Positions 45,638-62,921 of a stretch of 64,000 bases of DNA are shown in pieces (positions within the stretch are counted from its first letter, which is position 1; each line of letters starts with the position of its first letter). The DNA is from a virus (Duplodnaviria; Heunggongvirae; Uroviricota; Caudoviricetes): positions 22,224 to 86,223 of the IMG/VR virus record IMGVR_UViG_3300022468_000772. The stretch is one strand, 5' to 3'. The notes beneath the pieces are model-generated. The model was not told where the DNA came from. It searched no databases and was given only the letters and a program-made list of their open reading frames with translations. Made by a program: the position numbers and the translations under genes.

Positions 45638-45758
45638 GCGAGGGTGGCGAAATAGGTAGACGCACTGGACTTTTACAGAATATCTTCCTAAGAGGGTATT
45701 CGATAAAATCCAACGGGGAGTGATCCTCATACGGGTTCGATCCCCGTCCCTCGTACCA
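45638..45758 (+). tRNA. tRNA-Leu-type gene with 32-nt hairpin insert in anticodon loop
   Basis: Acceptor GCGAGGG/CCCTCGT, Leu-type D and variable arms, T arm, CCA; insert at ~45672-45704. Confidence 0.8.
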
Positions 45759-45760
45759 GT

Positions 45761-45834
45761 GGCGCACTGTCAGATTGGTTATGTACGGGATTGCAAATCC
45801 TGATAGATCGGTTCGATTCCGGTGTGCGCCTCCA
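45761..45834 (+). tRNA. tRNA-Cys(GCA)
   Basis: GGCGCAC/GTGCGCC, loop TTGCAAA, U73, CCA. Confidence 0.9.
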
Positions 45835-45859
45835 AGTGAAACAAAACAGGAGTTATATT

Positions 45860-46354
45860 ATGTCTCAATTTAAAGTAGGTGATAAAGTTCGTCGCACAGA
45901 AGAAGGTGGCAGTGACGATAAGTTTGGTATATATGTTGGAAAAATTTATACTGTCTCCAGTAGCGGATCGTGCGGATCGTTCATTCTTTTAGAAGGTATA
46001 GCGGGTTCATGGAACTCCAACTATTTTGAGTTAGTGGATGATAACGGTGAGTTTCAATCAAAAAAGCATCCTCACGCTGATCTGATCATTGCATGGGCTA
46101 ACGGTGCTAGCATTGAGCAACTTGGTCAAGGCAAAAATGGAAAGTGGGTAGTTGTTTCGCAGCCATCTTGGGCTGTTAACTCTAAATTCCGTGTCAAGCC
46201 AAAAGTTGTTGAACCAGTTACCGCGAAGCGTAGAATTGCAGCAGTTGGATCAGCTATTGGTGATTACCTGACATGGTATACAGATGGTGTTCCCAATGTC
46301 GAAGTGACCTACAATCCAGAGACAAAAGAAATTCTGACTATCAAACAAATCTGA
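45860..46354 (+). CDS. Hypothetical protein (KOW/SH3-like start, then HPHADLIIAWANG domain)
   Basis: AGGAG RBS; FKVGDKVR. Confidence 0.7.
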   Translation: MSQFKVGDKVRRTEEGGSDDKFGIYVGKIYTVSSSGSCGSFILLEGIAGSWNSNYFELVDDNGEFQSKKHPHADLIIAWANGASIEQLGQGKNGKWVVVSQPSWAVNSKFRVKPKVVEPVTAKRRIAAVGSAIGDYLTWYTDGVPNVEVTYNPETKEILTIKQI

Positions 46355-46356
46355 TT

Positions 46357-46698
46357 ATGGAACTAAAAATCAAGAAGGAACTTCGTACTACGAAGTCTGG
46401 TCAGCCTGAATTCTCAAATAAATTTATTGAGGTCAAGTATGACATGGAACACAGGACAGCAACATTTCATAACCCTTATATTGACGTATACACGCATGAA
46501 TTAAAAATATTTGCCAAGGGTCAATTTCCATCTGATGGTACACCTGATCACAGTATAGCAAGAAATGGCTTGATGTCTTTCCTGTACTCTGATATAATTC
46601 ATGAGTTGCATCTTTTGGCAAATGATATTTCACCTAGAAATACAGATGCAATAAAAAGAATTCGACAAATGCAGCATGATTTGTCCACATGGGAATAA
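46357..46698 (+). CDS. Hypothetical protein
   Basis: Coupled to upstream gene. Confidence 0.6.
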   Translation: MELKIKKELRTTKSGQPEFSNKFIEVKYDMEHRTATFHNPYIDVYTHELKIFAKGQFPSDGTPDHSIARNGLMSFLYSDIIHELHLLANDISPRNTDAIKRIRQMQHDLSTWE

Positions 46699-46740
46699 AG
46701 CGTGTTATAATTCAGTCTTCGAAACACAAAAGGAAATCCT

Positions 46741-46896
46741 GTGAATACTGTGAAAAATGTAATAGTAAATGGGTTTGAGATTGGAAGAGTTGAGGGCAGT
46801 CGTTTTTACGGTTGTATTAAAATTGGTGAAAAACGCGGATTTCTGTTTAATACAAAAAAAGCTGCAGTAAGTTTTGCAAAAAATCAAAAACTGTGA
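46741..46896 (+). CDS. 51-aa hypothetical protein (GTG start)
   Basis: Directly behind repeat promoter-leader with AAGGA. Confidence 0.55.
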   Translation: MNTVKNVIVNGFEIGRVEGSRFYGCIKIGEKRGFLFNTKKAAVSFAKNQKL

Positions 46897-47232
46897 TATA
46901 ATTCAGTTATCCTACATACATCGAATGGTTCGGACAAGATAGCAAGAGTTATCTGCGTAGGATTCTCAACAAAAAAGCCGTGACAGTTGAGAACTTGTTG
47001 AGGAACTAAAAATAGTTCCCACATGTAAGCAAAATAGTGATATAATGCTTACATGTGACAGCAAACTGACGAGTTTATTGTTGCTATAGGAAGTAATTAA
47101 TCCTAGACCTAGTATAGTGTAGTTGGTAAGCACGTGCCCATTCGTAGGTTCGAATCCTACCACTTCTGTAATGGAAGTGTAGCCAAGAGGTCTAAGGCGG
47201 GTTCGAATCCCCTACATAAGGTCATATATAAA

Positions 47233-47322
47233 TTTGCTTGTAGACGAAATTAGGTAAAGTCGCCGTGAAAACCGGCAAAAAATATCGAAAGATATTTGGT
47301 GGTTCGAATCCACTCCGGCAAA
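47233..47322 (+). pseudogene. Degenerate class-II tRNA-like element
   Basis: D arm GAC..GTC, shortened anticodon arm, long variable arm, GGTTCGAATCC; no CCA. Confidence 0.45.
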
Positions 47323-47355
47323 TTTGTGTTATAATTGATTGAAGACTAATATGAT

Positions 47356-47572
47356 GAGTGTATACCTTAATAAAACAGAGGCGAAGGAAAGAATCGCCAA
47401 TGTGGTCTAAAGGGAACACTTCCAACATGGTATCGGAGAATAGGGCAGTAGTGACATAAGAGTGGTATCTTATGAATCGAAGTCGGGATAAGTACCAATC
47501 CCGCTAAACAGGAATCCGAACGATACCGGAGAAGATGTTTGATTTTAGGTTCGAATCCTAATGTACTCACCA
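47356..47572 (+). ncRNA. 217-nt tRNA-like RNA with large internal insertions
   Basis: GAGTGTA/TGTACTC stem + ACCA, canonical T arm, several internal hairpins. Confidence 0.5.
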
Positions 47573-47602
47573 TATTAGTTTTAATGTTAATTTGGAGTTA
47601 TT

Positions 47603-47848
47603 ATGAAAAAGTTTTTGGTTATCGCTGCAGTTGCACTTTTGAGCGCATGTACAAATACATCCAACGCAGAGCGTGTGTTGGCTGATAATGGATATACCGA
47701 TATCCAAATGACTGGTTATAGTCTATTTGGTTGTGATAAAAACGACACTTTTTCAGATGGCTTTAAAGCAAAAAGCCCAAATGGAAAAATGGTGGAAGGT
47801 GTTGTTTGCTCTGGAGTTTTTAAAGGTGCCACCATCCGGTTTAATTGA
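47603..47848 (+). CDS. Putative lipoprotein
   Basis: Signal peptide with lipobox LSAC. Confidence 0.75.
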   Translation: MKKFLVIAAVALLSACTNTSNAERVLADNGYTDIQMTGYSLFGCDKNDTFSDGFKAKSPNGKMVEGVVCSGVFKGATIRFN

Positions 47849-47857
47849 TATAAATAC

Positions 47858-47931
47858 TTACTCGTAGCTCAGTGTAGAGCGCCCTACTTTTAATGGGGAG
47901 GTCGGTGGGTCGTTCCCATCCGAGTAAACCA
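47858..47931 (+). tRNA. tRNA-Lys(TTT), atypical T loop
   Basis: TTACTCG/CGAGTAA, loop CTTTTAA, CCA; TATAAATA upstream. Confidence 0.8.
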
Positions 47932-48047
47932 AGTTTGTAACCCTAAACGTCTAAGTAACCGAGACATGACGTTGAATTGCAAGAGAACTGCTGGCAAAGT
48001 CGATAAATTCCTTCTCAGGATGTGCAGTTAGCAAAGGGTTCATTTAT

Positions 48048-48171
48048 TTTGTTGTGAAGGGGAATTGGTATACCCTACTGGTTGGATAATAGTGGGAAAG
48101 CGGTGTTTATCACCTTAAAGTAGCCCTCCTGTAAGCCGGTGCTTGTTTAGGTTCGAATCCTATCAACAAAA
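48048..48171 (+). tRNA. tRNA-like gene with ~45-nt insert in anticodon loop, no encoded CCA
   Basis: TTTGTTG/CAACAAA, D arm AGGG/CCCT, stem CTGGT/GCCGG around a 52-nt loop, T arm. Confidence 0.5.
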
Positions 48172-48256
48172 AAAGAGCAAGTCGGGTAGCGCCCGAACAA
48201 CTCAGATCAAGAGTTACATTGTTGATCCTGCGGGTGCAAGAAGTCCCGACCAAATT

Positions 48257-48346
48257 GGGGTGTTGGCCGAGTGGTCTAAGGCAGCGGTCTTGAAAACCGT
48301 CACTGGCGCAAGCTGGTCGTGGGTTCGAATCCTACACGCCCCGCCA
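48257..48346 (+). tRNA. tRNA-Ser(TGA)
   Basis: Cloverleaf, long variable arm, G73, CCA. Confidence 0.92.
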
Positions 48347-48501
48347 CTATATTATTAGGAAACAGTATGGCATTGCTAGAGTTTTGTTTTGCAATCTATC
48401 TAATTTTCAATGATCATCCAGTCATTGGAATAATTTTGTTGCTTGATTCTGTTTCACGTACATCTTAGTGCTATAATCATTGAAATACAAAAGAGGTAGC
48501 T

Positions 48502-49116
48502 ATGCCAACATTCCGCGAAAAAATGATTGATGCAGTTCAGACACAGGAGGGATTTGATGTAAATCCTGACGATTTCTTTTTTGAAACTGGTATTGGTGGA
48601 ACTGACATCGATTATGAAAAGTTTGATGCGCGGTTTAAGAAATATCCAGTTTATACATGGGTGTGTACCGACACTTCTGTTGGCATCTATGCCATTACAC
48701 TCGATGGTGTACTCGTCGCATACACAACACAAAATGCCCGTAAAAACCCTGTAAACGTTTACTACTTTTCAAAGCTCATACAAGATTTGGTTGTTAAGGC
48801 GGTTTGCGAATGTGAACTTAACTGTGAATCTGAAAAGAATTATAGTCTGGTTGATGAATCAATTCTTGATTCTGACTATGACAAGATCAACGCTTTTGAA
48901 AATCGCATGTTGGTAACTGAGTTCCCTGCATTGGTTTCCATGGGTCTGACTATTGAACAAAATGAAAACAAATTTATTGTGTTGAAAGACAGTGTTCGGA
49001 TAAACGATTTCTCTCATGAAAGTATGGATACTGTTGAACAATGCGCCAAGCATCATGTTAGTTATTCGTCTGATCCAGAATCTTTCATCAAACTATTTCT
49101 GTTGCCTGAAATGTAA
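48502..49116 (+). CDS. Hypothetical protein
   Basis: Repeat promoter-leader with GAGG RBS. Confidence 0.7.
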   Translation: MPTFREKMIDAVQTQEGFDVNPDDFFFETGIGGTDIDYEKFDARFKKYPVYTWVCTDTSVGIYAITLDGVLVAYTTQNARKNPVNVYYFSKLIQDLVVKAVCECELNCESEKNYSLVDESILDSDYDKINAFENRMLVTEFPALVSMGLTIEQNENKFIVLKDSVRINDFSHESMDTVEQCAKHHVSYSSDPESFIKLFLLPEM

Positions 49117-49121
49117 TTACT

Positions 49122-49198
49122 GCGACCATAGCTCAATTGGATAGAGTTACTGTCTTCTACACAGTCTGTTGGGGGTTCGAATCCCTCTGGTCGCACCA
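49122..49198 (+). tRNA. tRNA-Arg(TCT)
   Basis: Cloverleaf, loop CTTCTAC, CCA. Confidence 0.92.
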
Positions 49199-49210
49199 AT
49201 CAAAAATATT

Positions 49211-49540
49211 ATGACAAAACATCTGTATAGATTTGTTGATTCTGATTATGGAATTGATCCCATTATTGAGAAATTTCCAATCATCAAAGAAACCCCTTGC
49301 GCGTATTGGATTGACCGTTCATACAATGAGCCAAAACTTGTCTATAAAAATTCCACTCGTGGTTTTGCCAAGCAAACAATCGAAGAAGCTATGGAGAGCT
49401 ATTATCGAAGAAAATTGCGACAACTATCTATTTTGAATAGTCATGTTTCTCGTGTGGAGAGTATTCTTGAAGAAATCAAGACAAAAGAGCAGCGTGGCGA
49501 TATTGTCAATAAATCATTAGAAAGAGTCAAAGAATGGTAA
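49211..49540 (+). CDS. Hypothetical protein
   Basis: ORF track with corrected start. Confidence 0.6.
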   Translation: MTKHLYRFVDSDYGIDPIIEKFPIIKETPCAYWIDRSYNEPKLVYKNSTRGFAKQTIEEAMESYYRRKLRQLSILNSHVSRVESILEEIKTKEQRGDIVNKSLERVKEW

Positions 49541-49821
49541 GAATTCTTCATAGTTCATTTGCGGGTTCATACTATCAAGAGTGTACAATTGTTGATCATG
49601 TCAAGTTTGACCCTGTAAAACACGGAAGTGACTTGAATAAGGTTATGATTGCCTTCGGTTATAGTAAAGCAGAAGATCACCCACACTTCGATAAAGATGG
49701 TGTCATTGTTTCATATTATGATGATGTTTTGGGTGAGTCTGTAGAACAATGGGTGGAGTTCAGTCGAATAGAAACCATGCGTGATGGGAGTGGTTTAGCT
49801 CGGTTTAACAAGGTGGATTGA
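49534..49821 (+). CDS. Hypothetical protein
   Basis: Overlapping operon ORF. Confidence 0.6.
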   Translation: MVRILHSSFAGSYYQECTIVDHVKFDPVKHGSDLNKVMIAFGYSKAEDHPHFDKDGVIVSYYDDVLGESVEQWVEFSRIETMRDGSGLARFNKVD

Positions 49822-49823
49822 AA

Positions 49824-50165
49824 ATGAGTAATCTGAAACTGTATATCGCGGTTCTAGACGAGTTTCCAGACTATATGACACCTACCCTAGTGGCACATGC
49901 TGTTCTCGCTGCAGATCGCGAATTTGTAGGAACCAAACTGTATGAACAATGGTTTGCTGATTCATTTAAGAAAGTTGTTGTTCGGGTCAACCAAAAAGAG
50001 TTTGACAAGATTAGTCAACTATTTGGTGTGCATCTGGCGCACGAAAACAAGACACTTGGCGGTAAGAAAGCATGTGCTGTTGTATGCCCTCGCGAAGATG
50101 TGCCCAATGTATTGAAATTTGCTAAGACTTGGAAACCACTTCCGGCATCTAGTGAGGTCAGCTAA
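49824..50165 (+). CDS. Peptidyl-tRNA hydrolase 2 (PTH2)-like protein
   Basis: KLYIAV...VAHA...W...SFKKVV.RV pattern matches the PTH2 fold signature. Confidence 0.55.
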   Translation: MSNLKLYIAVLDEFPDYMTPTLVAHAVLAADREFVGTKLYEQWFADSFKKVVVRVNQKEFDKISQLFGVHLAHENKTLGGKKACAVVCPREDVPNVLKFAKTWKPLPASSEVS

Positions 50166-50246
50166 AGGTTAAGCTGTTGCCCTCGATATCAGAAAAAGGC
50201 GTCACTGATTGGCAACAAATTTTTGGTTCGATTCCAAAATCTCATA
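50152..50246 (+). tRNA. tRNA-like gene with ~22-nt hairpin insert in anticodon loop
   Basis: GTGAGGT/ATCTCAT, D arm GCT/AGC, GTTGCC/GGCAAC around 29-nt loop, T arm. Confidence 0.5.
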
Positions 50247-50291
50247 CAAACCGTGTTATAATTCAGTCATCGAAATTCAAAAGGTGGTCTT

Positions 50292-50510
50292 ATGAAAAAT
50301 ACAAAATACTTTTGGAAAGAAGTTCCACTCAAAGCTGATATTGAGCGGCACCGTAAACAAGAAAAAGAAATTCAAGATAAGATTGACTTGCTTGAGTCGA
50401 TTGTTGAACCAACAGAAATGCAATTGAGAACACTTGCTACATATCGAAATTTTATGTATCAACTGCAACTGTCTAAAGCAGAAGTTGTTTCTAAGATTGG
50501 TAAGAAATGA
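50292..50510 (+). CDS. Hypothetical coiled-coil protein
   Basis: Behind 38-bp promoter repeat. Confidence 0.65.
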   Translation: MKNTKYFWKEVPLKADIERHRKQEKEIQDKIDLLESIVEPTEMQLRTLATYRNFMYQLQLSKAEVVSKIGKK

Positions 50511-50863
50511 CACCACTGAATAAATCTTTTATTGGTGCCGCGAACACCAAACGTGCAAGTCTAAACGCTATCTTGATTCGCTCAAAAATTGACAAAATTG
50601 TCTATCCATCGTTCCATTTAGTGGAACGTATGGTTGAGCGAAATATTGATGTTGTCGATGTTGCACGGATGACTGTGCCAATTGTCAAATACTTTCGAGA
50701 AACCACATTCAACGACAGAAGCTGTTTAGTTCTGTGGCGCGACCTGAAGCTGGCGGCTGACATTCGGATTGGAACCGTTACTGGTAAACGTTCGATTATT
50801 TTGAAAACCATTGTTGATGATGTTTCTCGAAAAACTTTTGATGAAACGTTCAAAATCGAATAA
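50507..50863 (+). CDS. Hypothetical, possible DUF4258/BECR-like fold
   Basis: SFHLVERMVERNI motif. Confidence 0.45.
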   Translation: MTPLNKSFIGAANTKRASLNAILIRSKIDKIVYPSFHLVERMVERNIDVVDVARMTVPIVKYFRETTFNDRSCLVLWRDLKLAADIRIGTVTGKRSIILKTIVDDVSRKTFDETFKIE

Positions 50864-50907
50864 AACCGTGTTATAATTCAGTCATCGAAATTCAAAAGGT
50901 AAACAAA

Positions 50908-51144
50908 ATGACTACATTCATCACTTCTTACAGCCAGTTGAACAATGGTGATCGTATTTCTTATGAATCTAATTGTGGTACACTAACTGCCACTGTGAGT
51001 CACATTCGAATCGGTAAGAATGGTCTTGGTAAGATGGTTCCATTTTTGGGCCTGAATGTTGATGCAAAGAATGGTCGCAAGGCACATCGGCTTGAATTGC
51101 TTGGTGGTAATTCTTTGCCTATGTACAGAATTCAGAAACTGTGA
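50908..51144 (+). CDS. Hypothetical protein
   Basis: Behind 38-bp promoter repeat. Confidence 0.65.
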   Translation: MTTFITSYSQLNNGDRISYESNCGTLTATVSHIRIGKNGLGKMVPFLGLNVDAKNGRKAHRLELLGGNSLPMYRIQKL

Positions 51145-51159
51145 TAGAATAAAGAAAAC

Positions 51160-51235
51160 GCACCAAGTCATCTAGAGGCAAGGATACGTACCCGTCTTGT
51201 GGTCGCAACGTAGGTTCGAATCCTACCTTGGTGCA
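51160..51235 (+). pseudogene. Degenerate tRNA-Asp(GTC)-like gene
   Basis: GCACCAAG/CTTGGTGC, Asp/Glu-type D arm and T arm; anticodon stem poorly paired; no CCA. Confidence 0.5.
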
Positions 51236-51267
51236 TTTAACAAATTGATAATGAAAAGGAAAATATT

Positions 51268-51915
51268 ATGAGCGAAAAACAATTGATCAGTGTGACACGT
51301 GCTTTGGCTTTGTTGAAGCAAACCGACGAGCGTATTCAGCGCGCAATGAGCGACAAGTTCATTGATGTGTCTGTTGGTAAGGGTAAGAACCGCCGTGTTC
51401 AGCGTGGCGGTAGCGATACAGTTGATGTGGTCGAAAAGAACATTCAGTCTGCTATCGACTCCGTGCGTGATTTGCTGTCTCGCCGTGCAGCTATCAAGGC
51501 AGCTATCGTTGCTTCGAACGCAAAGACTGGCCTGACTGTTGCCGGTGAATATGTGACTGTGGCAGAAGCTATCGAAATGAAGCGTTCTGTTGAGTTCAAG
51601 CGTCAACTGGTTAACGCCATGAAGACACAGTATCTTCAGGCTAACAATACAGTTGCTACTCTGAATGTGAAGGTGGAAGCAAGTATTGATGCTATCATCA
51701 ATACCATGATGGCTTCTGATAAATCTACAAAGGTCGATCCTTCGGTTTTGGCTGCGATTGGTGAACCCCAACGCAATCAAAGTGAAGCAGCTTTGATTGA
51801 TCCTGCAAATCTGTCTACCTTCATCAAGAAGTTGGAAGACGAGATTTCCGAGATTGACACCGAACTGGATTTCTTGTTGAGTGAAATCAACGCGAAGACA
51901 CATATTCTGGTATAA
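51268..51915 (+). CDS. Coiled-coil protein, DIP1984-like
   Basis: RALALLKQ.DERI, AAI.ASNA.T, TVAEAI, LSEINA.T pattern; AAGGA RBS. Confidence 0.6.
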   Translation: MSEKQLISVTRALALLKQTDERIQRAMSDKFIDVSVGKGKNRRVQRGGSDTVDVVEKNIQSAIDSVRDLLSRRAAIKAAIVASNAKTGLTVAGEYVTVAEAIEMKRSVEFKRQLVNAMKTQYLQANNTVATLNVKVEASIDAIINTMMASDKSTKVDPSVLAAIGEPQRNQSEAALIDPANLSTFIKKLEDEISEIDTELDFLLSEINAKTHILV

Positions 51916-51919
51916 ATAA

Positions 51920-52185
51920 CATTTCAACGTCCTAGGTGAACAGTCTAAGATGACCTTTCGAGCAGAGAGAATCAAAACATCTGCAACTTTGCTTAAAAAG
52001 TACAAATTAAATCTGGAACTTCAAAATTCAAAGATCAAAGTTTATGCTTCAAAGTTTAAGTTTTAAGTTTTAGAATATCATGTTTTAAAATTGAAAGTTA
52101 AAAGGTCTTCAAATCCTGATCAACGGTTTTATGGTGCTGGAGTCGCACCTAGATTGTACCGCAGGCTGCTTAGTGGGGTTGAAAT
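51920..52185 (+). ncRNA. ~265-nt structured RNA with central 7-nt periodic tract
   Basis: Terminal stem ATTTCAAC/GTTGAAAT, inner CTAGGTG/CACCTAG; TATAAATA at 51911. Confidence 0.6.
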
Positions 52186-52186
52186 T

Positions 52187-52271
52187 GGGAGAGTGGCGGA
52201 ATAGGTAGACGCGCCGGTTTAAGAAGCCGGTACCGTAAGGTGTGCAGGTTCGATTCCTGTCTCTCCCACCA
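52187..52271 (+). tRNA. tRNA-Leu(AAG)
   Basis: GGGAGAG/CTCTCCC, loop TTAAGAA, variable arm, A73, CCA. Confidence 0.88.
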
Positions 52272-52278
52272 AATTTAT

Positions 52279-52351
52279 GCGGGTAAGCTAGAGGTTAGTC
52301 GCCAGCCTTCCAAGCTGTGCAGAGTGGAGTTCGATTCTCCCTACCCGCTCA
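52279..52351 (+). tRNA. tRNA-Gly(TCC), incomplete CCA
   Basis: GCGGGTA/TACCCGC, loop CTTCCAA, ends TCA. Confidence 0.8.
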
Positions 52352-53108: not shown

Positions 53109-53110
53109 TC

Positions 53111-53601: not shown

Positions 53602-53603
53602 TT

Positions 53604-56290: not shown

Positions 56291-56734
56291 AAGTTCTTTA
56301 GAAATTACTGTTGGAGGTAGGCTTAGAAGTAGCCATTCTGATACAAGAAAGGTATTACCGAATTAAGTTAGGGTAAGGTTTCTCAAGGTCAGACGCAAGT
56401 TAGATGATTCTCATATGAGGATTCTCGTAGTCAACAAGGTAAGGAAAACTGACTGACTTGTGCCTTTAAAGAGTCGAACAATAGCATGATTGTGACATCT
56501 ACAATTCTTAGAAGGGCATCAATAAGAATTGGAATTCAAAAGTGTTTCTGGTGAATATGGGGAAGATCGGAAACATCAGCAAATCAACTTTCGCGGGTTG
56601 ATGAAGCAATGGGGTAGCGCCCCTGAGAATTGTTGCACATGGGCCACTTGGTTAAGTACAGAGGCACCCCAGAAATGGTAAGGCTGAAGTTTCGTTTGGT
56701 GTAGAAACGCACAACAGTAATTTCTAAAGAATTT
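56291..56734 (+). ncRNA. ~440-nt RNA with 23-bp terminal stalk and 23S rRNA L11-site-like segments
   Basis: GAGGTAGGCTTAGAAGTAGCCAT at 56314; TTTAAAGAGT at 56465; no ORF. Confidence 0.7.
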
Positions 56735-56758
56735 CAAAAACTGTGTTATAATAGCTAT

Positions 56759-57001
56759 ATGAAAATTTTTGAAGTACCAAAAAACGAAGCAGAAATCAAG
56801 CGTGGCTTGATTCTTATTGGAATTGAAGGTTCAGAGTTTGAAGTGGAATCGGTTACAAAACTGATTTCAAAATCATATCCTAGTACAAATTGTTCTGATG
56901 TGGGTGATAAAGAAGGTTATGTAATTGAATATTTTTGCATAAACCGTTCTGATAAGTCTCATTTTGTTAATCTTTACAAAACAGCAAAATCTGGTTTATA
57001 A
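56759..57001 (+). CDS. Hypothetical protein
   Basis: Promoter motif upstream. Confidence 0.55.
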   Translation: MKIFEVPKNEAEIKRGLILIGIEGSEFEVESVTKLISKSYPSTNCSDVGDKEGYVIEYFCINRSDKSHFVNLYKTAKSGL

Positions 57002-57077
57002 TAAGGTGAATATATGCAATTCTTATGAAAAGAGGAAGATAGTTTGACCGAAGCATTTAACAAAGGAACCTACTGAA

Positions 57078-57326
57078 ATGGAAAATTTCTATACAGTTTG
57101 GATTGTCGCCAGTGTCATCACTTTTGTTTTGTACATTTTTGATTATCGTCATCGTAGTAGCGTCACGGTAGGTGAAGTTTTTGCGCATATTCTTTTAACA
57201 GTGTTGCCGACATCCATCCTCGTTGTTGTGATTGTGGCTGTCGTCTATGTTTGGGAATCGGCACTCGGTGGGTTTTCAAGAATTAGTGATATTCTTGATC
57301 GTGAAATAAAATTGAAGGGTAAATAA
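57078..57326 (+). CDS. Small membrane protein
   Basis: Two hydrophobic helices. Confidence 0.6.
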   Translation: MENFYTVWIVASVITFVLYIFDYRHRSSVTVGEVFAHILLTVLPTSILVVVIVAVVYVWESALGGFSRISDILDREIKLKGK

Positions 57327-57365
57327 ATGACACGCTGTTAAAAGTGTGTTATAATTGAGAGATAC

Positions 57366-57451
57366 GGACAGGTGGGTGAGTGGTTAAAACCAGCAGACTG
57401 TAAATTTGCCGCCTAACGGCTACGTAGGTTCGAATCCTACCCTGTCCACCA
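57366..57451 (+). tRNA. tRNA-Tyr(GTA)
   Basis: Cloverleaf with variable arm, CCA. Confidence 0.92.
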
Positions 57452-57550
57452 AAAAGTTTAAGGAGTATAAAATGAACGAAGGTTCAGGATACGCATAAAT
57501 AGTTGACACTCTATAAAAGTGTGATAGAATTAAGTTTTAGAGTATTGTGT

Positions 57551-57636
57551 CTGGGATTAGCTCAGTCTGGTCAGAGCACCTGATTTGGATTCAGGAGGCG
57601 AAGTCGTATACGTAGGTTCGAATCCTACATCCCAGA
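57551..57636 (+). tRNA. tRNA-Pro(TGG) with long variable region and extended acceptor stalk, no CCA
   Basis: CTGGGAT/ATCCCAG, loop TTTGGAT; stem continues 10+ bp. Confidence 0.7.
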
Positions 57637-57736
57637 CACAATACTTTGAAGCGATTTCGGAATGAAATACTGAGTTCGAAATCTAACGGTTGTAAGTGAC
57701 GATGAAAAACGGAACTTCCATTTTAAAGTTCTTTGT

Positions 57737-57813
57737 CAGTGTGTAGCTCAGTCTGGTAGAGTACCCTCACTGTTCAAGAGGGTTGTCGCTGGTTCGAATC
57801 CATGCCGCACTGA
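57737..57813 (+). tRNA. tRNA-like gene with 9-nt anticodon loop on extended stalk
   Basis: CAGTGTG/CGCACTG plus 13 further bp; CCCTC/GAGGG with ACTGTTCAA loop. Confidence 0.5.
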
Positions 57814-57965
57814 CAAAGAATTTTATAGACATACGGTGGAACCTGATACGTCATCCGAAGATCATTGAATCATTAGGCGTCCTGCGGCATCGAAAGTACC
57901 CCGCATCAACATGAATTAAGTTTTATGCTCTGTTATAATGCAGGTTTTCTATAAAATTTTGAAAT

Positions 57966-58042
57966 AGAGCGGTAGTTTAATTGGCAAAATTCAGAACTCC
58001 AAATTCTTGAGACTCTAGGTTCGAATCCTAGTCGCTCTGCCA
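57966..58042 (+). tRNA. tRNA-Trp(CCA)
   Basis: AGAGCGG/TCGCTCT, loop CTCCAAA, G73, CCA. Confidence 0.85.
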
Positions 58043-58051
58043 ATGGTTTAT

Positions 58052-58146
58052 ATGTCGGTAGCTTAAAGAGGTGCGCAACTAAATCCTCAACGTCAGAGCG
58101 CCTATTCGCGATAGGAGGTGGGGTTAGATTCCTTCCCGGCATGCCA
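58052..58146 (+). tRNA. tRNA-like gene with D-loop insertion (anticodon possibly CGC)
   Basis: ATGTCGG/CCGGCAT+GCCA; GCTT/GAGC enclosing 31 nt; CCTA(T)/(A)TAGG arm. Confidence 0.5.
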
Positions 58147-58225
58147 TATTGTTAGTTTTATCGGTGAGTGAAAAGTTGGGAGAGATTGTGTATACCATAA
58201 ATATATGTATAGTTGAGGTATACAC

Positions 58226-58615
58226 ATGGAAAAAACTTACGAATGTCTACACTGTAGTAAAATTTGCATTATGCATCGGGCAAAGGTTAACAAATATTGT
58301 TCAAACCAATGTCAAAAAGATTATGAATTCTATAAGTCAGTGGAATCTGGGACAGCATCGCATAGAGTTATAAAACGGTATTTGATTGAAAAGAATGGAT
58401 CAAAATGTTTTGAATGCGGGATCAGTGATTGGAATGGTTTATCTTTGGTAATGGAGTTGGAGCATATTGATGGCAATTCTGAAAACAATAGTTTAGCCAA
58501 TGTTAAACTATTGTGTCCAAATTGTCATTCCCAGACGCCAACATATAAGGCTAAAAATGTTGGAAATGGAAGGCATTCGCGTCGAATTCGATATCAAAGT
58601 GGAAAAAGTTATTAG
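58226..58615 (+). CDS. HNH endonuclease inside the tRNA cluster
   Basis: CFECG, LEHIDGNSENN...LLCPNCHS. Confidence 0.88.
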   Translation: MEKTYECLHCSKICIMHRAKVNKYCSNQCQKDYEFYKSVESGTASHRVIKRYLIEKNGSKCFECGISDWNGLSLVMELEHIDGNSENNSLANVKLLCPNCHSQTPTYKAKNVGNGRHSRRIRYQSGKSY

Positions 58616-58703
58616 CTGGATTGTCTGAGTGGTTGAAAGAAACGGTTTTGTAAGCCGTTGGGTTAACTCCCCATCGCAGGTTCGAATCCTGTGTCCAGCA
58701 CCA
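58615..58703 (+). tRNA. tRNA with Thr(TGT) anticodon on a class-II body
   Basis: GCTGGAT/GTCCAGC, loop TTTGTAA, long variable arm, CCA. Confidence 0.8.
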
Positions 58704-58780
58704 GTTAGCGTGATAGACCACGCACCAACGTTAGAAGTAACGTTAATGACTTCAATCAAGTGCGAATCTTGTTAAAATTT

Positions 58781-58856
58781 GGGTCTTTAGCTCAGTTGGG
58801 AGAGCCGTGCCCTTGTAGGGCGAAGGTCGGCAGTTCAAGTCTGTCAAGACCCACCA
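58781..58856 (+). tRNA. tRNA-Thr(TGT)
   Basis: GGGTCTT/AAGACCC, loop CTTGTAG, CCA. Confidence 0.8.
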
Positions 58857-59081
58857 AATTGTGGTATAATGTAGGTATACTAAGTTGCTTGTGATTAGTA
58901 GAGTAGATGAAAACCGAGCCAGAGCGCAAAGAACTGGTCTTCAATCATTAGATTGACGTTTACGGAAGGAAGTCGGTTCAGTAGGGAGTCGAAAGCAAGC
59001 AATAGCGGAAAGAGTTGGTTGGACGACAAAAGTTATGAGTTTGTTCCTCAAATAACGCCGTGTATTCGTTCATAGATTATT

Positions 59082-59156
59082 GGGTTGTTAGTGTAATGGT
59101 TAGCACCAGAGATTGTGATTCTCTTAGTTCAAGTTCAAATCTTGAACAACCCTCCA
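59082..59156 (+). tRNA. tRNA-His(GTG) without encoded G-1
   Basis: GGGTTGT/ACAACCC, loop TTGTGAT, T at -1, T73, CCA. Confidence 0.9.
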
Positions 59157-59428
59157 AAGTTGTGGTATAATTGCTTTATCAAAGGATAAATAATTATGTC
59201 AGCCTTATCACCTGATAGAAAATAGACACCGAATTATGTGGTTAGCGTAGTTCTATAGATGTCTGGGGTAAGAATCCTAAGTTAACCACGAATTAATCGA
59301 TCTGATCAGTCGAAAAGTAAGTAGTAGGGTGTCATGTTACAGCGGCGCTCTTTGCAGTGATATACTGCGTCAGTCTGAGGAAGATTGAGAAACACTGTGG
59401 TAAAAACCCAAACGTAGCTGTAACCTAT

Positions 59429-59505
59429 GCCCCGTTGGACTTCTGGTTGAGGTCATCACCCTTTCAAGGTGAGCAGGCTCGGTTCGAATCCGGCACGGGG
59501 TACCA
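59429..59505 (+). tRNA. tRNA-Glu(TTC)
   Basis: Cloverleaf, loop CTTTCAA, CCA. Confidence 0.9.
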
Positions 59506-59517
59506 AGTTTTATTTGT

Positions 59518-59596
59518 TGCGGATTAGAGAAGCCCGATCTATCTCACTTGGCTCATAACCAAGAGGTCACTGGTTCAAATCCAGTATCCGCTACCA
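59518..59596 (+). tRNA. tRNA-Met(CAT), initiator-like 1:72 mismatch
   Basis: TGCGGAT/ATCCGCT, loop CTCATAA, CCA. Confidence 0.85.
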
Positions 59597-59607
59597 ATAA
59601 AATTTAT

Positions 59608-59686
59608 TCCACAGAACCCGAGCGTGGTGCATGGGCCGGACTGTTAATCCGTGGTTAGCTGGGATCGTCACCCAGATGTGGAGCCA
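59608..59686 (+). tRNA. tRNA-Asn(GTT), atypical D/T loops
   Basis: Loop CTGTTAA, G73, CCA. Confidence 0.78.
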
Positions 59687-59706
59687 TATTTGAAAGAAAA
59701 ATATTA

Positions 59707-59883
59707 TGAGTGCAAAACTGATTGGTGAAGATATTCCAAAGAGCATTGGTAAATACAATATCGCATCTGAGCGAATTCGTACTATGATTCCATTTTTTGC
59801 GACCTTTGATGGTGAAAAATGGGTTGATATTCCATCTTTTTTCCTAAATGAAGGTGGTAAACTCTATTTCTTTGAAGATTGAT
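59707..59883 (+). CDS. 58-aa hypothetical protein (not in ORF track)
   Basis: MSAKLIGEDIPK...LYFFED. Confidence 0.55.
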
Positions 59884-59891
59884 ATATCGGG

Positions 59892-59967
59892 GGGGGTGTA
59901 GCTCAGTTGGGAGAGCGGTTGCTTTGCAAGCAATAGGTCGCAGGTTCGATTCCTGTCACTTCCACCA
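59892..59967 (+). tRNA. tRNA-Ala(TGC)
   Basis: G3:U70, loop TTTGCAA, CCA. Confidence 0.93.
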
Positions 59968-59968
59968 T

Positions 59969-60080
59969 ATTTGAAGGCCAAATTCTCCTGGTGAGTATTA
60001 AAAGGCGTTGCGGCACTCGGAAGAGGCGTTAAACATCGAAGCGCAAACTAATAGGGTTGTGTCCCTGCCTGCCTTCAAAT
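59969..60080 (+). ncRNA. ~110-nt RNA closed by a 10-bp terminal stem
   Basis: ATTTGAAGGC/GCCTTCAAAT. Confidence 0.45.
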
Positions 60081-60245
60081 TATTATTATGAAAGTGAACT
60101 ATGAAACTTGTTGATATCTTCTTGGTGGATGGTATTCGAGTCTACGGCTATACACTTGAAGGTCACTCTGGTATTTGGCGTTCCATGACTTACTACCCTG
60201 AAACATGGCACATCCCAATGATCAAAGATATCTGGTTCGACTGAC

Positions 60246-60796
60246 ATGACACATCTTCCAATCCAATACATTCCATGTGCCATAGATTACCCTACACAGG
60301 CTTTCAAACGGCTTTGGAATGAACTGCAGTGGGATCGTCGTGGTTCAACTCCACGTAGAGAATACTACTGCAACGATGTCAACGTGTCCCTTACACCTAT
60401 GGCTCTGGCTCTGGTATCAGAACATATGAACCAAGGCTAATGCATCCTGTCATAGCTCAGATCAAATCTGATTGTGAGTTAATCATGAACACAAAATTTG
60501 AAGTAGTGTTTTTGAATGGATACGAGAATTCACGTGATCATCTTGGATGGCATGCTGATGACTCCCCAGAAATGGATGATACCAGACCCATTTGCATTGT
60601 TTCTCTTGGTGCAGAGCGTGAGATTTGGTTCAGGCCACAGAACGACAAAGACGAAGTGACTAAACTTGTGTTGCAGCATGGAAGCCTTTGTGTGATGGAA
60701 GCTGGTATGCAGGATACACACTATCACCGAATTCCCAAAGCCAGCTTTGAATGTGGGCCTAGAATCAGCATTACACTGCGCGGATACACTGAATAA
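60246..60796 (+). pseudogene. AlkB-family 2OG-Fe(II) dioxygenase split by a frameshift near 60385
   Basis: WHADD, SLGAER, H.IPK, RISITLR; conserved-looking PYTYGSG..IRTYEP lies in the shifted frame. Confidence 0.8.
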
Positions 60797-60797
60797 T

Positions 60798-61088
60798 ATG
60801 CCAGAGCAATACAATACATTTCCAAAATTCCCTGCTATGTCACGTGCTTTAGCTGATGTACGTCTTATGTTTGGGCTTACCGACTATCCTATTAGATTTA
60901 CCAAAGAAGAGCTTGAAATCGCTTCTAGGTTTGATGCTGCTTTAGAATTACGTAAAGTAATGGAACGTAGAAAAGCTATGAGGGAAGAGCAACAGCTTAA
61001 TGAATTTGATGTGTCTGAATTCATAGAACAGCAAAAACAACTATCTGAATACAATAAAAATAATCCAGATAATCCCGCAAAGTTCTAA
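60798..61088 (+). CDS. Hypothetical protein
   Basis: Coupled ORF. Confidence 0.6.
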   Translation: MPEQYNTFPKFPAMSRALADVRLMFGLTDYPIRFTKEELEIASRFDAALELRKVMERRKAMREEQQLNEFDVSEFIEQQKQLSEYNKNNPDNPAKF

Positions 61089-61134
61089 ATCTTGTGGTAT
61101 AATTCATTTATCTAAATTCAAAAGGAAATTCAAA

Positions 61135-61554
61135 ATGAACACCACATACGCTATTGCATATGTTTCGAATGGAAATACCTATCATAATTGGAGTGGTCAA
61201 ATTCAAGACTCTTTTGTGACCAAAACCTACGGATCGCAGCGTTTTGAGAGTGAAAGCGAAGCAGAGTTTTATATGGAAAAACTCTTCCGCGATTACCATG
61301 CAATTAAAAAAACAGAGCAAGAATTGTTTAGTGTTGATAAGAAACACTCAAATTTTCTTCGCTCTGAGAAAAAGGTTTCGCCTTACTGTGATGAAGTGAT
61401 CCGCCTTCATGATGAAGTTGAAACGAAAAAACAAGATTTTCAACTGGAATATGGAATTCGATTCCAAGATTTGGATTTTCATACGTCAGAAAATCACTTT
61501 CAAATCCATAAGCAGTATAACTATGACCCAGACGCATACAAGGGGTATCCATGA
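61135..61554 (+). CDS. Hypothetical protein
   Basis: Promoter-leader repeat upstream. Confidence 0.65.
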   Translation: MNTTYAIAYVSNGNTYHNWSGQIQDSFVTKTYGSQRFESESEAEFYMEKLFRDYHAIKKTEQELFSVDKKHSNFLRSEKKVSPYCDEVIRLHDEVETKKQDFQLEYGIRFQDLDFHTSENHFQIHKQYNYDPDAYKGYP

Positions 61555-61847
61555 TCACCATTGCTGAAGATAACCACATCCCCTTACTGCATAAGTTATC
61601 GATAACCGAAACTAAAAACGCCTTGAAATGGGGTTCTTTAGTTGATATCGAAGAATTCAAGCGGCAAGTTAATTCAGGGTTAGTCTCATATGACGAATCT
61701 GCGTTATGGGCATGCGAACACGAAACCAGAATCTACACTGGTGAAATGGTTGAATGGGAACTCAGCGAGAACGACAAAGACGAAGAAATTGTTTTACTTT
61801 TGAATAAACCCGAGTGGGCCACTATGGTTTACTGGTACGGCAAGTAA
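61551..61847 (+). CDS. Hypothetical protein
   Basis: ATGA overlap. Confidence 0.6.
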   Translation: MITIAEDNHIPLLHKLSITETKNALKWGSLVDIEEFKRQVNSGLVSYDESALWACEHETRIYTGEMVEWELSENDKDEEIVLLLNKPEWATMVYWYGK

Positions 61848-61865
61848 TGTGCTATAATTCCATTC

Positions 61866-62918
61866 ATGAAAACATCTATCTCTCAACTCAAAACATATTT
61901 GGTCGGCGGCGCAGTTCGCGATATCTACATGGGAGAAATCCCAAAGGATCGTGACTACGTTGTGCTTGGTTCCTCTCCAGAAGAAATGCTTTCTCTGGGC
62001 TTCGAACAAGTCGGTGCTGACTTCCCTGTGTTTCTACATCCAGAGACAAAGGAAGAGTATGCTTTGGCTCGTCGTGAGCGCAAGGTTGGTTCTGGTTACC
62101 TTGGTTTTGAGTGTGAGTTTGGTGCTGATGTTACACTTGAAGAAGACCTGAACCGTCGCGATTTCACTTGCAACTCCATGGCAATGGATTTGGAAACAAA
62201 CGAAATCTTTGACCCGTTTGATGGTCGCCACGACATCGACAGAGACACTCTCCGTATTACCTCTCCTGCCTTCAAAGAAGACCCTCTGCGCGTCTTGCGC
62301 ATGGCACGTTTTGCTGCGCGTTATGATTGGCATATTTCGTCTGAGTCTGTTGGTATTGCACGAGAAGTTGTACTCTCCGGTGCATTGAATGAACTGCCTG
62401 CAGAGCGTTTCTGGAAAGAGATTGAAAAGTCTTTTGATGACGAATCATTGCGTGATTTTTTTGTTAACTTGGATTACCTTCTGGTTATGAATTTTTCCGA
62501 GTTTTTTAAGAATGCACTACCAAAGTGGGCTGTTTATAAATCACATTTTGATGATCTTGAAAATGTGGAGTGGCTTTCTGCTCTGCTGTCGAATGAAAAT
62601 ACAACAATCTGGCTATCTGCACGTGCCAAACGCATTGCTAAGGCTTTGATGCTGGTTACACCGAGGAATGCAGAAACAATGTATAGTTACCTACTTGGAT
62701 GTGATGCATTCCGCATGAGCAGTATCTTGCGCGATGTTGTAAGTATCAAAAAAACAGTATATTTTAATACATCAACACAAATCACCATTGGTGCATGTAA
62801 CCTGTGCAAGACAGTCACTGCAACCGACTTCCCAAATCTGGAAGGAAAAGCGCTTGGTGATGCTATCAAAGACAAACGCATGCAATTGATCGCATGTCTC
62901 TATAACGATTTATTTTAA
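61866..62918 (+). CDS. cca: tRNA nucleotidyltransferase (CCA-adding enzyme, class II)
   Basis: YLVGGAVRD, DRDYVV, ALARRE, EEDLNRRDFTCN, EDPLRVLRMARFAAR, ERFW.E. Confidence 0.93.
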   Translation: MKTSISQLKTYLVGGAVRDIYMGEIPKDRDYVVLGSSPEEMLSLGFEQVGADFPVFLHPETKEEYALARRERKVGSGYLGFECEFGADVTLEEDLNRRDFTCNSMAMDLETNEIFDPFDGRHDIDRDTLRITSPAFKEDPLRVLRMARFAARYDWHISSESVGIAREVVLSGALNELPAERFWKEIEKSFDDESLRDFFVNLDYLLVMNFSEFFKNALPKWAVYKSHFDDLENVEWLSALLSNENTTIWLSARAKRIAKALMLVTPRNAETMYSYLLGCDAFRMSSILRDVVSIKKTVYFNTSTQITIGACNLCKTVTATDFPNLEGKALGDAIKDKRMQLIACLYNDLF

Positions 62919-62921
62919 GGA

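Follow-up and report, generated by a model that had tools for sequence, protein, structure and literature searches.

A probable T4-type tRNA and stable-RNA region with tRNA-scaffolded small RNAs and an apparently mobile 32-nt hairpin in a T4-like phage

The locus and its relatives

We analyzed a 64,000-nucleotide (nt) stretch of viral DNA (here referred to as the window) that comprises bases 22224 to 86223 of a single 198,204-bp virus record (IMG/VR IMGVR_UViG_3300022468_000772). At window positions 45638 to 60090 lie 12 canonical tRNA genes together with approximately 13 noncanonical tRNA-shaped elements, all on the plus strand, and it is this mixture that concerns us here. The gene content of the genome is T4-like, including a gp45-type sliding clamp (44293 to 44970), NrdA, a helicase, and RNA ligases of the Rnl1 and Rnl2 families; the best NrdA match, at 58% identity, is to Variovorax and Acidovorax T4-like phages.

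Searches of a cultured-phage collection with DNA returned tRNA-sized matches or none and did not find a near relative, and searches of IMG/VR with the protein encoded at 48502 to 49116 and with the phage CCA-adding enzyme did not find relatives. A 215-amino-acid (aa) protein of the region, used as the query against IMG/VR and metagenomes, identified 160 loci (best match, 53% identity), the odd RNAs of which could not be aligned to those of the window; the closest fragment found in this way, L006, carries approximately 40 tRNAs, mostly of normal length. The noncoding segment 3′ of the gene for this protein (phrog_1491; segment at 51994 to 52176) is recognizably kept in at least 12 distant T4-like loci. 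A homolog search with a peptidyl-tRNA hydrolase 2 (PTH2)-like protein led to L167, a 198,322-bp contig that encodes a 93% identical protein and whose locus is syntenic with window positions 39094 to 61141 at 75 to 93% nucleotide identity. A third and more distant phage, L177, spans 49823 to 52197 at 72 to 81% identity. All covariation reported below is based on two or three sequences, namely, those of the window phage, L167, and, where it covers the element, L177.

ARAGORN called 15 tRNAs in the window, exclusively on the plus strand, between 45761 and 59967, and its intron mode added a 16th at 45638 to 45758. The Rfam tRNA model (RF00005) contributed 50152 to 50246 (36 bits), 51161 to 51234 (34 bits), and 52279 to 52349 (27.1 bits), along with partial matches at 47111 to 47164 and 47529 to 47569. 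A covariance model of our own, built from 23 canonical phage tRNAs, produced 25 plus-strand matches and no minus-strand match over 44000 to 64000 at an E value of <1. Furthermore, the plus strand of the 198,204-bp genome has 20 copies of the T-loop word GTTCGA[AT]TC, every one of them within window coordinates 45811 to 64277 and eight of them outside called tRNAs; the two minus-strand copies of the word lie elsewhere in the genome. Given the confinement of these words and the model matches, the cluster of extra tRNA-like elements is real and far above chance. ARAGORN at relaxed thresholds yielded mostly noise, and a regular-expression scan for an acceptor stem plus T arm was also noisy, so that perfect 7/7 cases alone were retained from it.

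We counted a gene as canonical if it exceeded the Rfam gathering score of 29 bits and had a 7-nt anticodon loop. Twelve genes qualify (Cys, Lys, Ser, Arg, Leu-AAG, Tyr, Trp, Thr, His, Glu, Met, and Ala), with Rfam scores of 40 to 70 bits and normal loops, which is fewer than the roughly 17 standard tRNAs listed in a first-pass annotation of the sequence; its count of at least eight noncanonical genes is borne out. The elements starting at 45638 (41.6 bits), 50152 (36 bits), and 51160 (34 bits) exceed 29 bits as well, but only if large local insertions or an abnormal central part are tolerated, and those at 52279, 57737, 47111, and 47529 fall below it. CCA is encoded by almost all of the canonical genes and is missing from seven odd elements that are described below under their labels or start coordinates: X3, X5, 50152, 51160, a Gly-like gene, and two stalked cloverleaves.

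Conserved tRNA-framed RNAs

X4 (47346 to 47579, plus strand) is a tRNA-framed RNA of approximately 235 nt in which a stalk of 18 to 21 bp, including a perfect 7-bp acceptor-like stem, and a canonical T arm on the 3′ side enclose a multihelix interior of approximately 140 nt. It has no anticodon arm, and a promoter of its own lies upstream. The predicted fold has a minimum free energy (MFE) of −69.3 kcal/mol (z score, −4.5). At 74% identity to the L167 sequence, 13 of the 57 to 60 predicted pairs show compensatory changes and none are broken, compared to zero compensatory pairs in slid controls. The ACCA of X4 is not a CCA end, because it reads ACAA in L167 and is paired within the stalk. An exact-pattern scan of IMG/VR for the X4 core gave zero matches. 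Identity as a transfer-messenger RNA (tmRNA) was considered and rejected: ARAGORN with the -m option finds none in the genome, the third acceptor pair is G3-C70 and not G3-U70, and the ACCA is not conserved.

Upstream of X4, X1-X2 (47106 to 47222, plus strand) comprises two D-arm/T-arm pairs without an anticodon arm and matches Rfam partially, at 23.9 bits each to the tRNA model (model positions 4 to 67) and to YrlA (model positions 24 to 84). Its first T arm, an acceptor-like hairpin, and its second D arm follow one another in the order of the permuted tRNA-like module of YrlA, and, as in YrlA and tmRNA, mimicry of the tRNA top half is joined to another RNA domain. We do not assign X1-X2 to YrlA (RF02553), since 23.9 bits compares with a gathering score of 69 and no TROVE/Rsr match was found in the genome. 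Relative to L167 there are five compensatory pairs. Four of these belong to the central hairpin, which separates T arm 1 from D arm 2 and whose sequence is wholly different in L167, with pairing retained.

X3 (47233 to 47323, plus strand; z score, −3.0) is an odd cloverleaf that is closed by a helix of 10 bp and has only 4 bp in its anticodon stem, together with a 7-bp variable hairpin. Its loop, UGAAAAC, presents AAA and lacks U33. Both the loop and the variable hairpin are kept in L167, where ARAGORN calls the ortholog tRNA-Phe(AAA); the two sequences are 86% identical, with one compensatory, three one-sided, and no broken changes.

The element at 50152 to 50246 (plus strand) matches the Rfam tRNA model with a 29-nt insert, carries an extra hairpin (5-bp stem, 12-nt loop) within the anticodon loop, and overlaps the last codons of the PTH2-like open reading frame (ORF). 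Its 81-nt interior, including the hairpin and the 12-nt loop, is 100% identical in the window phage, L167, and L177, whereas the flanks are 72 to 78% identical, and what variation exists is limited to the acceptor stem and is compensated. A further element at 51160 to 51235 (plus strand), with its own promoter, has an 8-bp acceptor stem, a canonical T arm, and an aberrant D/anticodon region; across the three phages, five compensatory pairs fall in the acceptor stem, the T stem, and one interior helix, while the middle drifts. Finally, a class II-type tRNA with anticodon UGU (58615 to 58703, plus strand; Rfam, 52.6 bits) combines A73 and CCA with a long variable arm, a 3-bp D stem, and a Thr anticodon, and at only 58% identity to its L167 counterpart (17544 to 17626), it shows eight compensatory pairs.

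Because of these compensatory changes, or of identity, in L167 and L177, random decay across relatives, which the first-pass annotation had offered as the test of its reading, does not describe X1-X2, X3, X4, 50152, 51160, or the class II tRNA(UGU). As judged from sequence comparison, these are conserved structures and not products of decay; X5, 58047, and 59608 are a separate case (see below).

Several odd RNAs are also directly preceded by promoter-like sequences. The extended −10 motif TGnTA[TGC]AAT has 25 of its 36 plus-strand copies in the genome within 45000 to 64000 and none on the minus strand there, a very high promoter density for a 19-kb segment, and copies at 45620, 47038, 47327, 51142, and 57522 stand directly before odd RNAs.

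Three gene-free segments (47932 to 48043, 58875 to 59081, and 59968 to 60090) are 94 to 97% identical to L167, above the identity of neighboring coding DNA, and their predicted folds include closing stems. In addition, the second segment has its own promoter and partly matches L006 (7241 to 7391). All three are likely to be further small RNAs.

An interrupted tRNA-Leu(UAA) and its 32-nt hairpin

The region opens with a tRNA-Leu(UAA) gene (45638 to 45758, plus strand) that has A73, CCA, and a 32-nt insert, recognized by ARAGORN in intron mode and by Rfam with a 33-nt local insert. The insert (45673 to 45704) sits in register 34/35, with 33/34 equally possible owing to a repeated T, and consists of a 10-bp stem capped by a CUAA tetraloop, with a tail of 5 nt before it and one of 3 nt after it. 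The interrupted gene folds with an MFE of −48.8 kcal/mol (z score, −5.0). Its ortholog in L167 (6566 to 6654) is an uninterrupted 89-nt tRNA-Leu(UAA), and excision of 45673 to 45704 restores exactly the anticodon loop of that ortholog. The two tRNA bodies differ at eight positions, all structure neutral and including two compensatory pairs.

A twin of the insert occurs in L167 (18679 to 18710), again 32 nt long, of the same layout, at site 34/35, and with a UAAA tetraloop. Its carrier is a stalked Asn(GUU) gene (18645 to 18750), in which removal of the insert leaves the loop CUGUUAA. The polymorphism is reciprocal, in that the Leu insert of the window phage is absent from L167 and the Asn insert of L167 is absent from the window phage; therefore, after the two phages diverged, each of the two tRNA genes must have acquired or lost the hairpin on its own. 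Ungapped, the two inserts are identical at 17 of 32 positions, and four stem pairs differ, all of them compensated, which argues that the hairpin structure is under selection. When 2.65 Mb of related DNA was scanned for a motif derived from the two loops, it matched only these two sites, both in anticodon loops; the scan is circular as a statistic, since the motif was drawn from those loops, and what it shows is that there are no further copies. An exact-pattern scan of IMG/VR for the Leu D arm/anticodon stem gave zero matches. From these comparisons, the 32-nt hairpin appears to move between tRNA genes within this phage lineage.

In bacteria and plastids, tRNA-Leu(UAA) genes can carry a group I intron at the same site, between U34 and A35. 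Group I introns have a conserved ribozyme core (P3 to P9) and are typically >200 nt long. The present insert shares the tRNA species with the Leu(UAA) intron but is 32 nt long and has no ribozyme core; it is far too small, and no Rfam intron or ribozyme matched at an E value of ≤10 over 44000 to 64000, so that we rejected a group I intron. Closer in kind are the “enigmatic” introns in tRNA genes of Lak megaphages, which are too small for group I and whose removal mechanism is unknown (Devoto et al. 2019, PMC6784885). The inserts of both systems are present in some and absent from other related genomes. What differs here is the setting, a T4-like phage of 198 kb, and the insert, a plain 32-nt hairpin at 34/35, whereas a tRNA-like intron is reported for one Lak tRNA (PMC6784885). 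A further difference is that each of two close relatives is shown here to carry the insert in a tRNA gene in which the other lacks it.

Inserts in the region range from 22 to 52 nt, with approximately 140 nt in X4, and ARAGORN in intron mode reported further insert-bearing tRNA-like genes across approximately 160 distant T4-like tRNA loci. One family, conserved at 11 loci, has a rod of approximately 50 nt in the anticodon loop. At four other loci, the genes concerned are those for Trp, Leu(UAA), Gln, and His, and their inserts of 71 to 79 nt themselves include T-arm-like hairpins. Excision of a tRNA-shaped intron by RNase P and RNase Z may fit the 71- to 79-nt inserts; we rejected it for the 32-nt hairpin, which is not tRNA shaped. 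The idea that the hairpin loop, with its central CUA, acts as a second anticodon loop was also dropped, since pairing leaves a loop of 4 or 6 nt rather than 7.

One explanation of the interrupted gene is protein-dependent splicing. The Leu hairpin would then be an intron, as might be the inserts of 50152, X5, and X4; an endonuclease would cut it out, and Rnl1 or Rnl2 would join the halves into a functional tRNA. The clean excision described above speaks for it, as do the retention of A73, CCA, and all stems in a Leu body with two compensatory changes relative to L167, the perfect CUGUUAA loop left by removal of the twin, and the covariation at four stem pairs, which suggests a selected structure. 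Rnl1 and Rnl2 are both encoded by this phage, and unexplained tRNA introns that vary between strains are on record in Lak megaphages (PMC6784885). We nevertheless consider splicing rather unlikely. No excising endonuclease was identified, although no search was aimed at the EndA/Sen-type families. Neither RtcB nor a PNK3P phosphatase was detected in the genome, and similarity to T4 Pnkp is confined to the P-loop. There is no ribozyme or Rfam intron, and the junctions of 45673 to 45704, inspected by eye, sit in a 5-bp helix and a 2×2 internal loop and not in the 3-nt bulges of a bulge-helix-bulge; the site, 34/35, also differs from the usual 37/38 of protein-spliced archaeal and eukaryal introns. 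For 50152, removal of the insert would create a CGA anticodon, but the body is of class I and does not resemble that of a tRNA-Ser, and invariance of the insert in three phages argues for a functional module rather than an intron.

A bolder combination would make the 32-nt hairpin a minimal, ORF-less mobile intron, excised by an endonuclease and sealed by Rnl1/Rnl2, and would place 50152, X4, and X1-X2 in a separate new class of regulatory RNAs riding on host tRNA processing. We give it a low likelihood; if true, it would mean that tRNAs are spliced with the help of proteins in a bacterial virus.

The cut-and-ligate maturation proposed in the first-pass annotation as part of a build-and-repair system thus keeps one clean 32-nt insert and the ligases encoded in the genome, and loses the excising endonuclease, which was not identified, and the coherence of the system, the enzymes being dispersed; most of the odd elements are not interrupted decoding tRNAs but tRNA-framed RNAs in which either a usable anticodon loop or the identity elements for the apparent amino acid are missing. 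For the hairpin itself, the data fit either a small intron acting at the RNA level or a palindromic parasite of anticodon loops acting at the DNA level.

Stalked and lineage-specific look-alikes

Two cloverleaves are mounted on long leader-trailer stalks. The first, Pro(UGG)-like (57537 to 57649, plus strand; MFE, −51.2 kcal/mol; z score, −7.4), has a stalk of approximately 21 bp around a cloverleaf at 57551 to 57637. The variable region of this cloverleaf is enlarged by 11 nt, its acceptor has U1-A72 and C73, and CCA is not encoded. In L167, by contrast, the orthologous gene specifies a canonical tRNA-Pro of 77 nt that has C1-G72, A73, and CCA; five pairs between the two are compensatory. The identity elements of Escherichia coli prolyl-tRNA synthetase (ProRS) are G72, A73, G35, and G36; with U1-A72 and C73, the stalked form should therefore be a poor ProRS substrate. 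The second, Asn(GUU)-like (57724 to 57826, plus strand; Rfam, 23.9 bits; MFE, −41.8 kcal/mol; z score, −5.4), stands on a stalk of approximately 20 bp; its anticodon loop is 9 nt long, its T stem is weak, and, in the window phage, it has no 32-nt insert. Stalks of approximately 20 bp are substrates of the RNase III type, and T4 species 1 RNA is cut by RNase III.

Among the other look-alikes, a Gly(UCC)-like gene (52279 to 52349, plus strand) stays below the Rfam cutoff and scores 34 bits with our own model (R1); its D arm is aberrant and its variable region long. L167 has a canonical, CCA-encoding tRNA-Gly gene at this location. X5 (48048 to 48170, plus strand; own model, 12.1 bits; z score, 0.25) has a perfect 7-bp acceptor stem, a D arm, a T arm, and an “anticodon loop” of 52 nt. 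At 58047 to 58147 (plus strand; R1, 7.7 bits; z score, 0.7), a 7-bp acceptor-like stem ending in GCCA marks the weakest member of the set, which is lineage specific and gives no fold signal. An Asn(GUU)-like tRNA with CCA (59608 to 59686, plus strand; R1, 15.4 bits), called by ARAGORN at relaxed threshold only, has a proper anticodon loop and a noncanonical T loop; its MFE structure is a cloverleaf (z score, −0.07). X5, a hairpin at 48176 to 48256, 58047, and 59608 are absent from L167, most of them without a fold signal, and may be young or decaying. Several of the look-alikes lack the identity elements or the anticodon loop needed for decoding.

Between these elements lies an HNH endonuclease ORF (58226 to 58615, plus strand; phrog_10822, 4.4e−23), which is absent from L167 and whose stop codon abuts the start of the class II tRNA(UGU). 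The whole block of HNH ORF, tRNA-Trp, stalked Asn, and 58047 is lacking in L167, which has a tRNA-Phe(GAA) instead. More broadly, L167 has Phe-GAA, Val-UAC, and canonical Gly and Pro genes, and the window phage has Trp, Ala, and the HNH block.

Such turnover is what would be expected if a small palindromic mobile DNA element inserted into anticodon-loop DNA and inactivated dispensable tRNA genes and the lineage-specific odd elements were pseudogenes. The differing tRNA sets of close relatives, the mostly normal-length tRNAs of L006, a frameshift in the AlkB-like gene of the window phage, the homing-type HNH gene within the array, and the three lineage-specific elements without a fold signal (X5, 58047, and 59608) all fit this explanation, and a DNA-level hairpin recognized by a mobility enzyme would also keep its covariation. 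However, selfish DNA and decay leave unexplained the six structures with compensatory changes or complete identity; two hairpin copies in 2.65 Mb are few for a proliferating element, and the interrupted Leu gene shows no stem-breaking change. As an account of the region, we hold it to be unlikely.

Canonical tRNAs and decoding oddities

The remaining genes of the array, all on the plus strand and called by ARAGORN, are mostly unremarkable in structure and score with Rfam. They encode tRNA-Cys(GCA) (45761 to 45834), tRNA-Lys(UUU) (47858 to 47931), class II tRNA-Ser(UGA) (48257 to 48346), tRNA-Arg(UCU) (49122 to 49198), class II tRNA-Leu(AAG) (52187 to 52271; L167 copy, 99% identical), class II tRNA-Tyr(GUA) (57366 to 57451), tRNA-Trp(CCA) (57966 to 58042), a tRNA with the Thr anticodon UGU (58781 to 58856), tRNA-His(GUG) (59082 to 59156), tRNA-Glu(UUC) and tRNA-Met(CAU) (together, 59429 to 59596), and tRNA-Ala(UGC) (59892 to 59967).

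Several carry decoding oddities. The tRNA at 58781 to 58856 reads UGU (Thr), whereas its counterpart in L167 (17712 to 17787) reads UAC (Val) on a body that is approximately 93% identical; by comparison with E. coli tRNA-Val, the body looks Val type. A34 occurs in two conserved tRNA-type genes, Leu-AAG (52187 to 52271) and X3 with its AAA (47233 to 47323), and is unusual in bacteria-type decoding except in Arg-ACG. Relative to window positions 47858 to 47931, the L167 tRNA-Lys(UUU) (8837 to 8911) has one extra T and an 8-nt anticodon loop, in which ARAGORN reads a 4-base anticodon; the extra T could be a homopolymer error or could mark a frameshift-type tRNA. The tRNA-His gene, read directly from the sequence, has U73 and does not encode G−1, base −1 being T. 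Bacterial histidyl-tRNA synthetase normally needs G−1, and the tRNA-His and the Thg1-like enzyme described below suggest a tRNA/enzyme pair.

Changes concentrated in the anticodon region bear on the possibility that the tRNA-shaped RNAs are decoys or sponges, absorbing host tRNA-directed defense enzymes, toxins, or tRNA-binding factors and thereby sparing the real tRNAs. Phage tRNAs are known to counter tRNA-cleaving defenses, and position 34/35 is cut by some anticodon nucleases. The many copies with a tRNA top half and elbow, their dedicated promoters, and the fact that the changing parts are anticodon regions (the Val-to-Thr switch, the 9-nt loop, the rods, and the inserts at 34/35) are in line with decoys. 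Anticodon nucleases, however, recognize the anticodon loop, which most of the odd RNAs lack; no matching defense system or host is known for this phage, and the invariant hairpin loop of 50152 suggests a specific partner rather than generic mimicry. We regard decoys as very unlikely to be the general explanation.

tRNA-care enzymes

The CCA-adding tRNA nucleotidyltransferase predicted in the first-pass annotation is present downstream of the array (61866 to 62918, plus strand; 350 aa; PF01743, 67.8 bits against a cutoff of 23; phrog_2244, 1.9e−90). It is 36 to 38% identical to annotated phage CCA enzymes and has the PolyA_pol head domain of a class II nucleotidyltransferase, with CCA addition as its predicted specificity. 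The PTH2-like gene (49818 to 50165, plus strand; 115 aa) is borne out by its fold. Its Pfam score (PF01981, 15 bits) lies below the cutoff of 23, while a profile of 20 homologs matched PDB entries 1rlk (E value, 0.0018) and 1wn2 (E value, 0.027), and an AlphaFold2 model (mean confidence [pLDDT], 82.7) had PTH2/Bit1 structures as all of its top 14 PDB matches in Foldseek (probability, 1.0; template modeling [TM] score, 0.56 to 0.62). We thus describe the protein as PTH2-like by predicted fold and not as a proven hydrolase. The family includes >1,800 phage proteins of approximately 105 aa that are often encoded beside topoisomerase or nucleotide-metabolism genes and not beside tRNAs; three more distant homologs likewise have non-tRNA contexts.

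Two predicted genes needed correction. An AlkB-like 2-oxoglutarate-Fe(II) oxygenase is indeed encoded (60246 to 60796, plus strand), with PF13532 matching the C-terminal part at 71.1 bits and phrog_21963 matching both parts, and its frame is split into ORFs of 64 and 118 aa. Compared with L167, where the 184-aa gene is intact, the window phage has 2 extra nt near 60383. The frame shifts after residue ~47, and the 118-aa ORF, which begins anew at an internal Met, retains the catalytic half of the protein; the insertion may be a sequencing error. The Thg1-like tRNA-His guanylyltransferase also exists as an intact 268-aa frame (PF04446, 106.6 bits against a cutoff of 29.2; E value, 1.2e−31; phrog_4717, 1.8e−65), located at 11563 to 12369 on the minus strand, 33 kb upstream of the tRNA region and not within it as had been proposed. 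The candidate for Thg1 inside the region, ORF 54071 to 54862 (263 aa), is an R2K ATP-grasp protein. Its gene overlaps one for a nucleoside 2-deoxyribosyltransferase-like protein, the pair spanning 53595 to 54862 within the tRNA region, and is kept in L167 (13889 to 14674).

Profiles for Rnl1, Rnl2, and RtcB had no match in the window, in keeping with the statement that it holds no RNA ligase. Elsewhere in the genome, where end-healing and ligase genes had been anticipated, an Rnl1 (PF09511, 68.1 bits; 394-aa frame; genome positions 154498 to 155148) and an Rnl2-family ligase are encoded, 42 to 70 kb beyond the window end. RtcB (PF01139) had no match in the genome at an E value of ≤0.1. A tblastn search with T4 PseT matched residues 4 to 37 only, corresponding to the P-loop, and the PNK3P phosphatase profile (PF08645) matched nothing. 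The only Pnkp candidate is a 190-aa AAA_33 kinase (C1:119819 to 120391, minus strand; L005, 1381 to 1953) in which the phosphatase half was not detected and whose gene adjoins a dCMP deaminase gene; T4 pseT lies approximately 1.3 kb from cd, with cd.1 to cd.5 between them. Compared to the Pnkp and Rnl1 repair of T4 against PrrC, this phage has ligases of both families and lacks a Pnkp ortholog. The classic heal-and-seal pair is therefore incomplete, and the failure to detect a Pnkp phosphatase or RtcB argues against healing of the cuts made by anticodon nucleases.

The tRNA-care enzymes form a dispersed toolkit typical of large phages and not one operon-like system. The notion of an integrated system falls on this dispersal, on the broken AlkB-like gene, and on the non-tRNA contexts of PTH2-like homologs.

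A T4-type tRNA and stable-RNA region

In phage T4, RNAC (species 1) and RNAD (species 2) are stable RNAs encoded in the tRNA cluster, with unknown functions (PMC3014915, PMC9697503). The region described here resembles that of T4 in its T4-like genome and in a tRNA cluster interspersed with small ORFs and a homing-type endonuclease gene (segB in T4, HNH here), and X4, like RNAC, has a canonical T arm near the 3′ end. It differs in having at least 12 such RNAs compared to two in T4, several with their own extended −10 motif, in lacking sequence similarity to RNAC or RNAD, and in its new designs: the double elbow, the anticodon-loop rods, and stalks of 17 to 21 bp. These are known kinds of elements with new features, namely, the T4 tRNA/stable-RNA region and the enigmatic phage tRNA introns, with unusually good comparative evidence.

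We favor, with a probability of about 0.6, the explanation that this is a T4-type tRNA and stable-RNA region with tRNA-scaffolded small RNAs and a single mobile hairpin, in a phage whose tRNA-care enzymes are encoded at scattered sites. We infer the following course for transcription, processing, CCA addition, G−1 addition, and scaffolded-RNA function. Host RNA polymerase would transcribe many short units early, and host RNase P, with RNase III acting at the stalks, would release both tRNAs and tRNA-framed RNAs. The approximately 12 ordinary decoding tRNAs would supplement host translation. About a dozen scaffolded RNAs keep the top half of a tRNA (an acceptor-like helix, a T arm, and usually a D arm), with the anticodon domain replaced or extended by a rod, a hairpin, or a 140-nt multihelix domain, and with others carrying a 17- to 21-bp acceptor stalk. 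The tRNA top half is what tRNA-processing enzymes and the CCA enzyme recognize. It would serve processing and stability in these RNAs, while the other module would be presented at the position of the anticodon, making them stable noncoding RNAs of the RNAC/RNAD type. The phage CCA enzyme would repair CCA ends and could build CCA on the CCA-less RNAs, the Thg1-like enzyme would add G−1 to the phage tRNA-His, the PTH2-like protein may recycle peptidyl-tRNA, and Rnl1 and Rnl2 may reseal broken tRNAs.

Several observations weigh against this explanation. X5, 58047, and 59608 are lineage specific and without a fold signal and could be decaying copies. No feature of a working tRNA has been lost from the body of the interrupted tRNA-Leu, as would also be expected of a spliced gene. 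Covariation has a depth of only two to three sequences because only two relatives were found, and RNAalifold selects compatible pairs by construction. A search for X4 homologs with an X4-core covariance model in 77 other T4-like tRNA loci gave one marginal match (E value, 0.047), and no partner or target for the scaffolded RNAs could be identified from the sequence.

The usual interpretation of phage tRNA clusters is that they help with codon usage or provide spares against tRNA-cutting defenses. Half of the tRNA-shaped genes in this region cannot be ordinary decoders and yet are conserved, and most of the odd ones are missed or misnamed by standard tRNA finders. The region revives a 50-year-old question about RNAC and RNAD of T4 with a richer set of RNAs that have clear structural designs. 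In addition, the 32-nt hairpin provides a small, defined test case for distinguishing protein-based tRNA splicing in bacterial viruses from a DNA parasite of anticodon loops.

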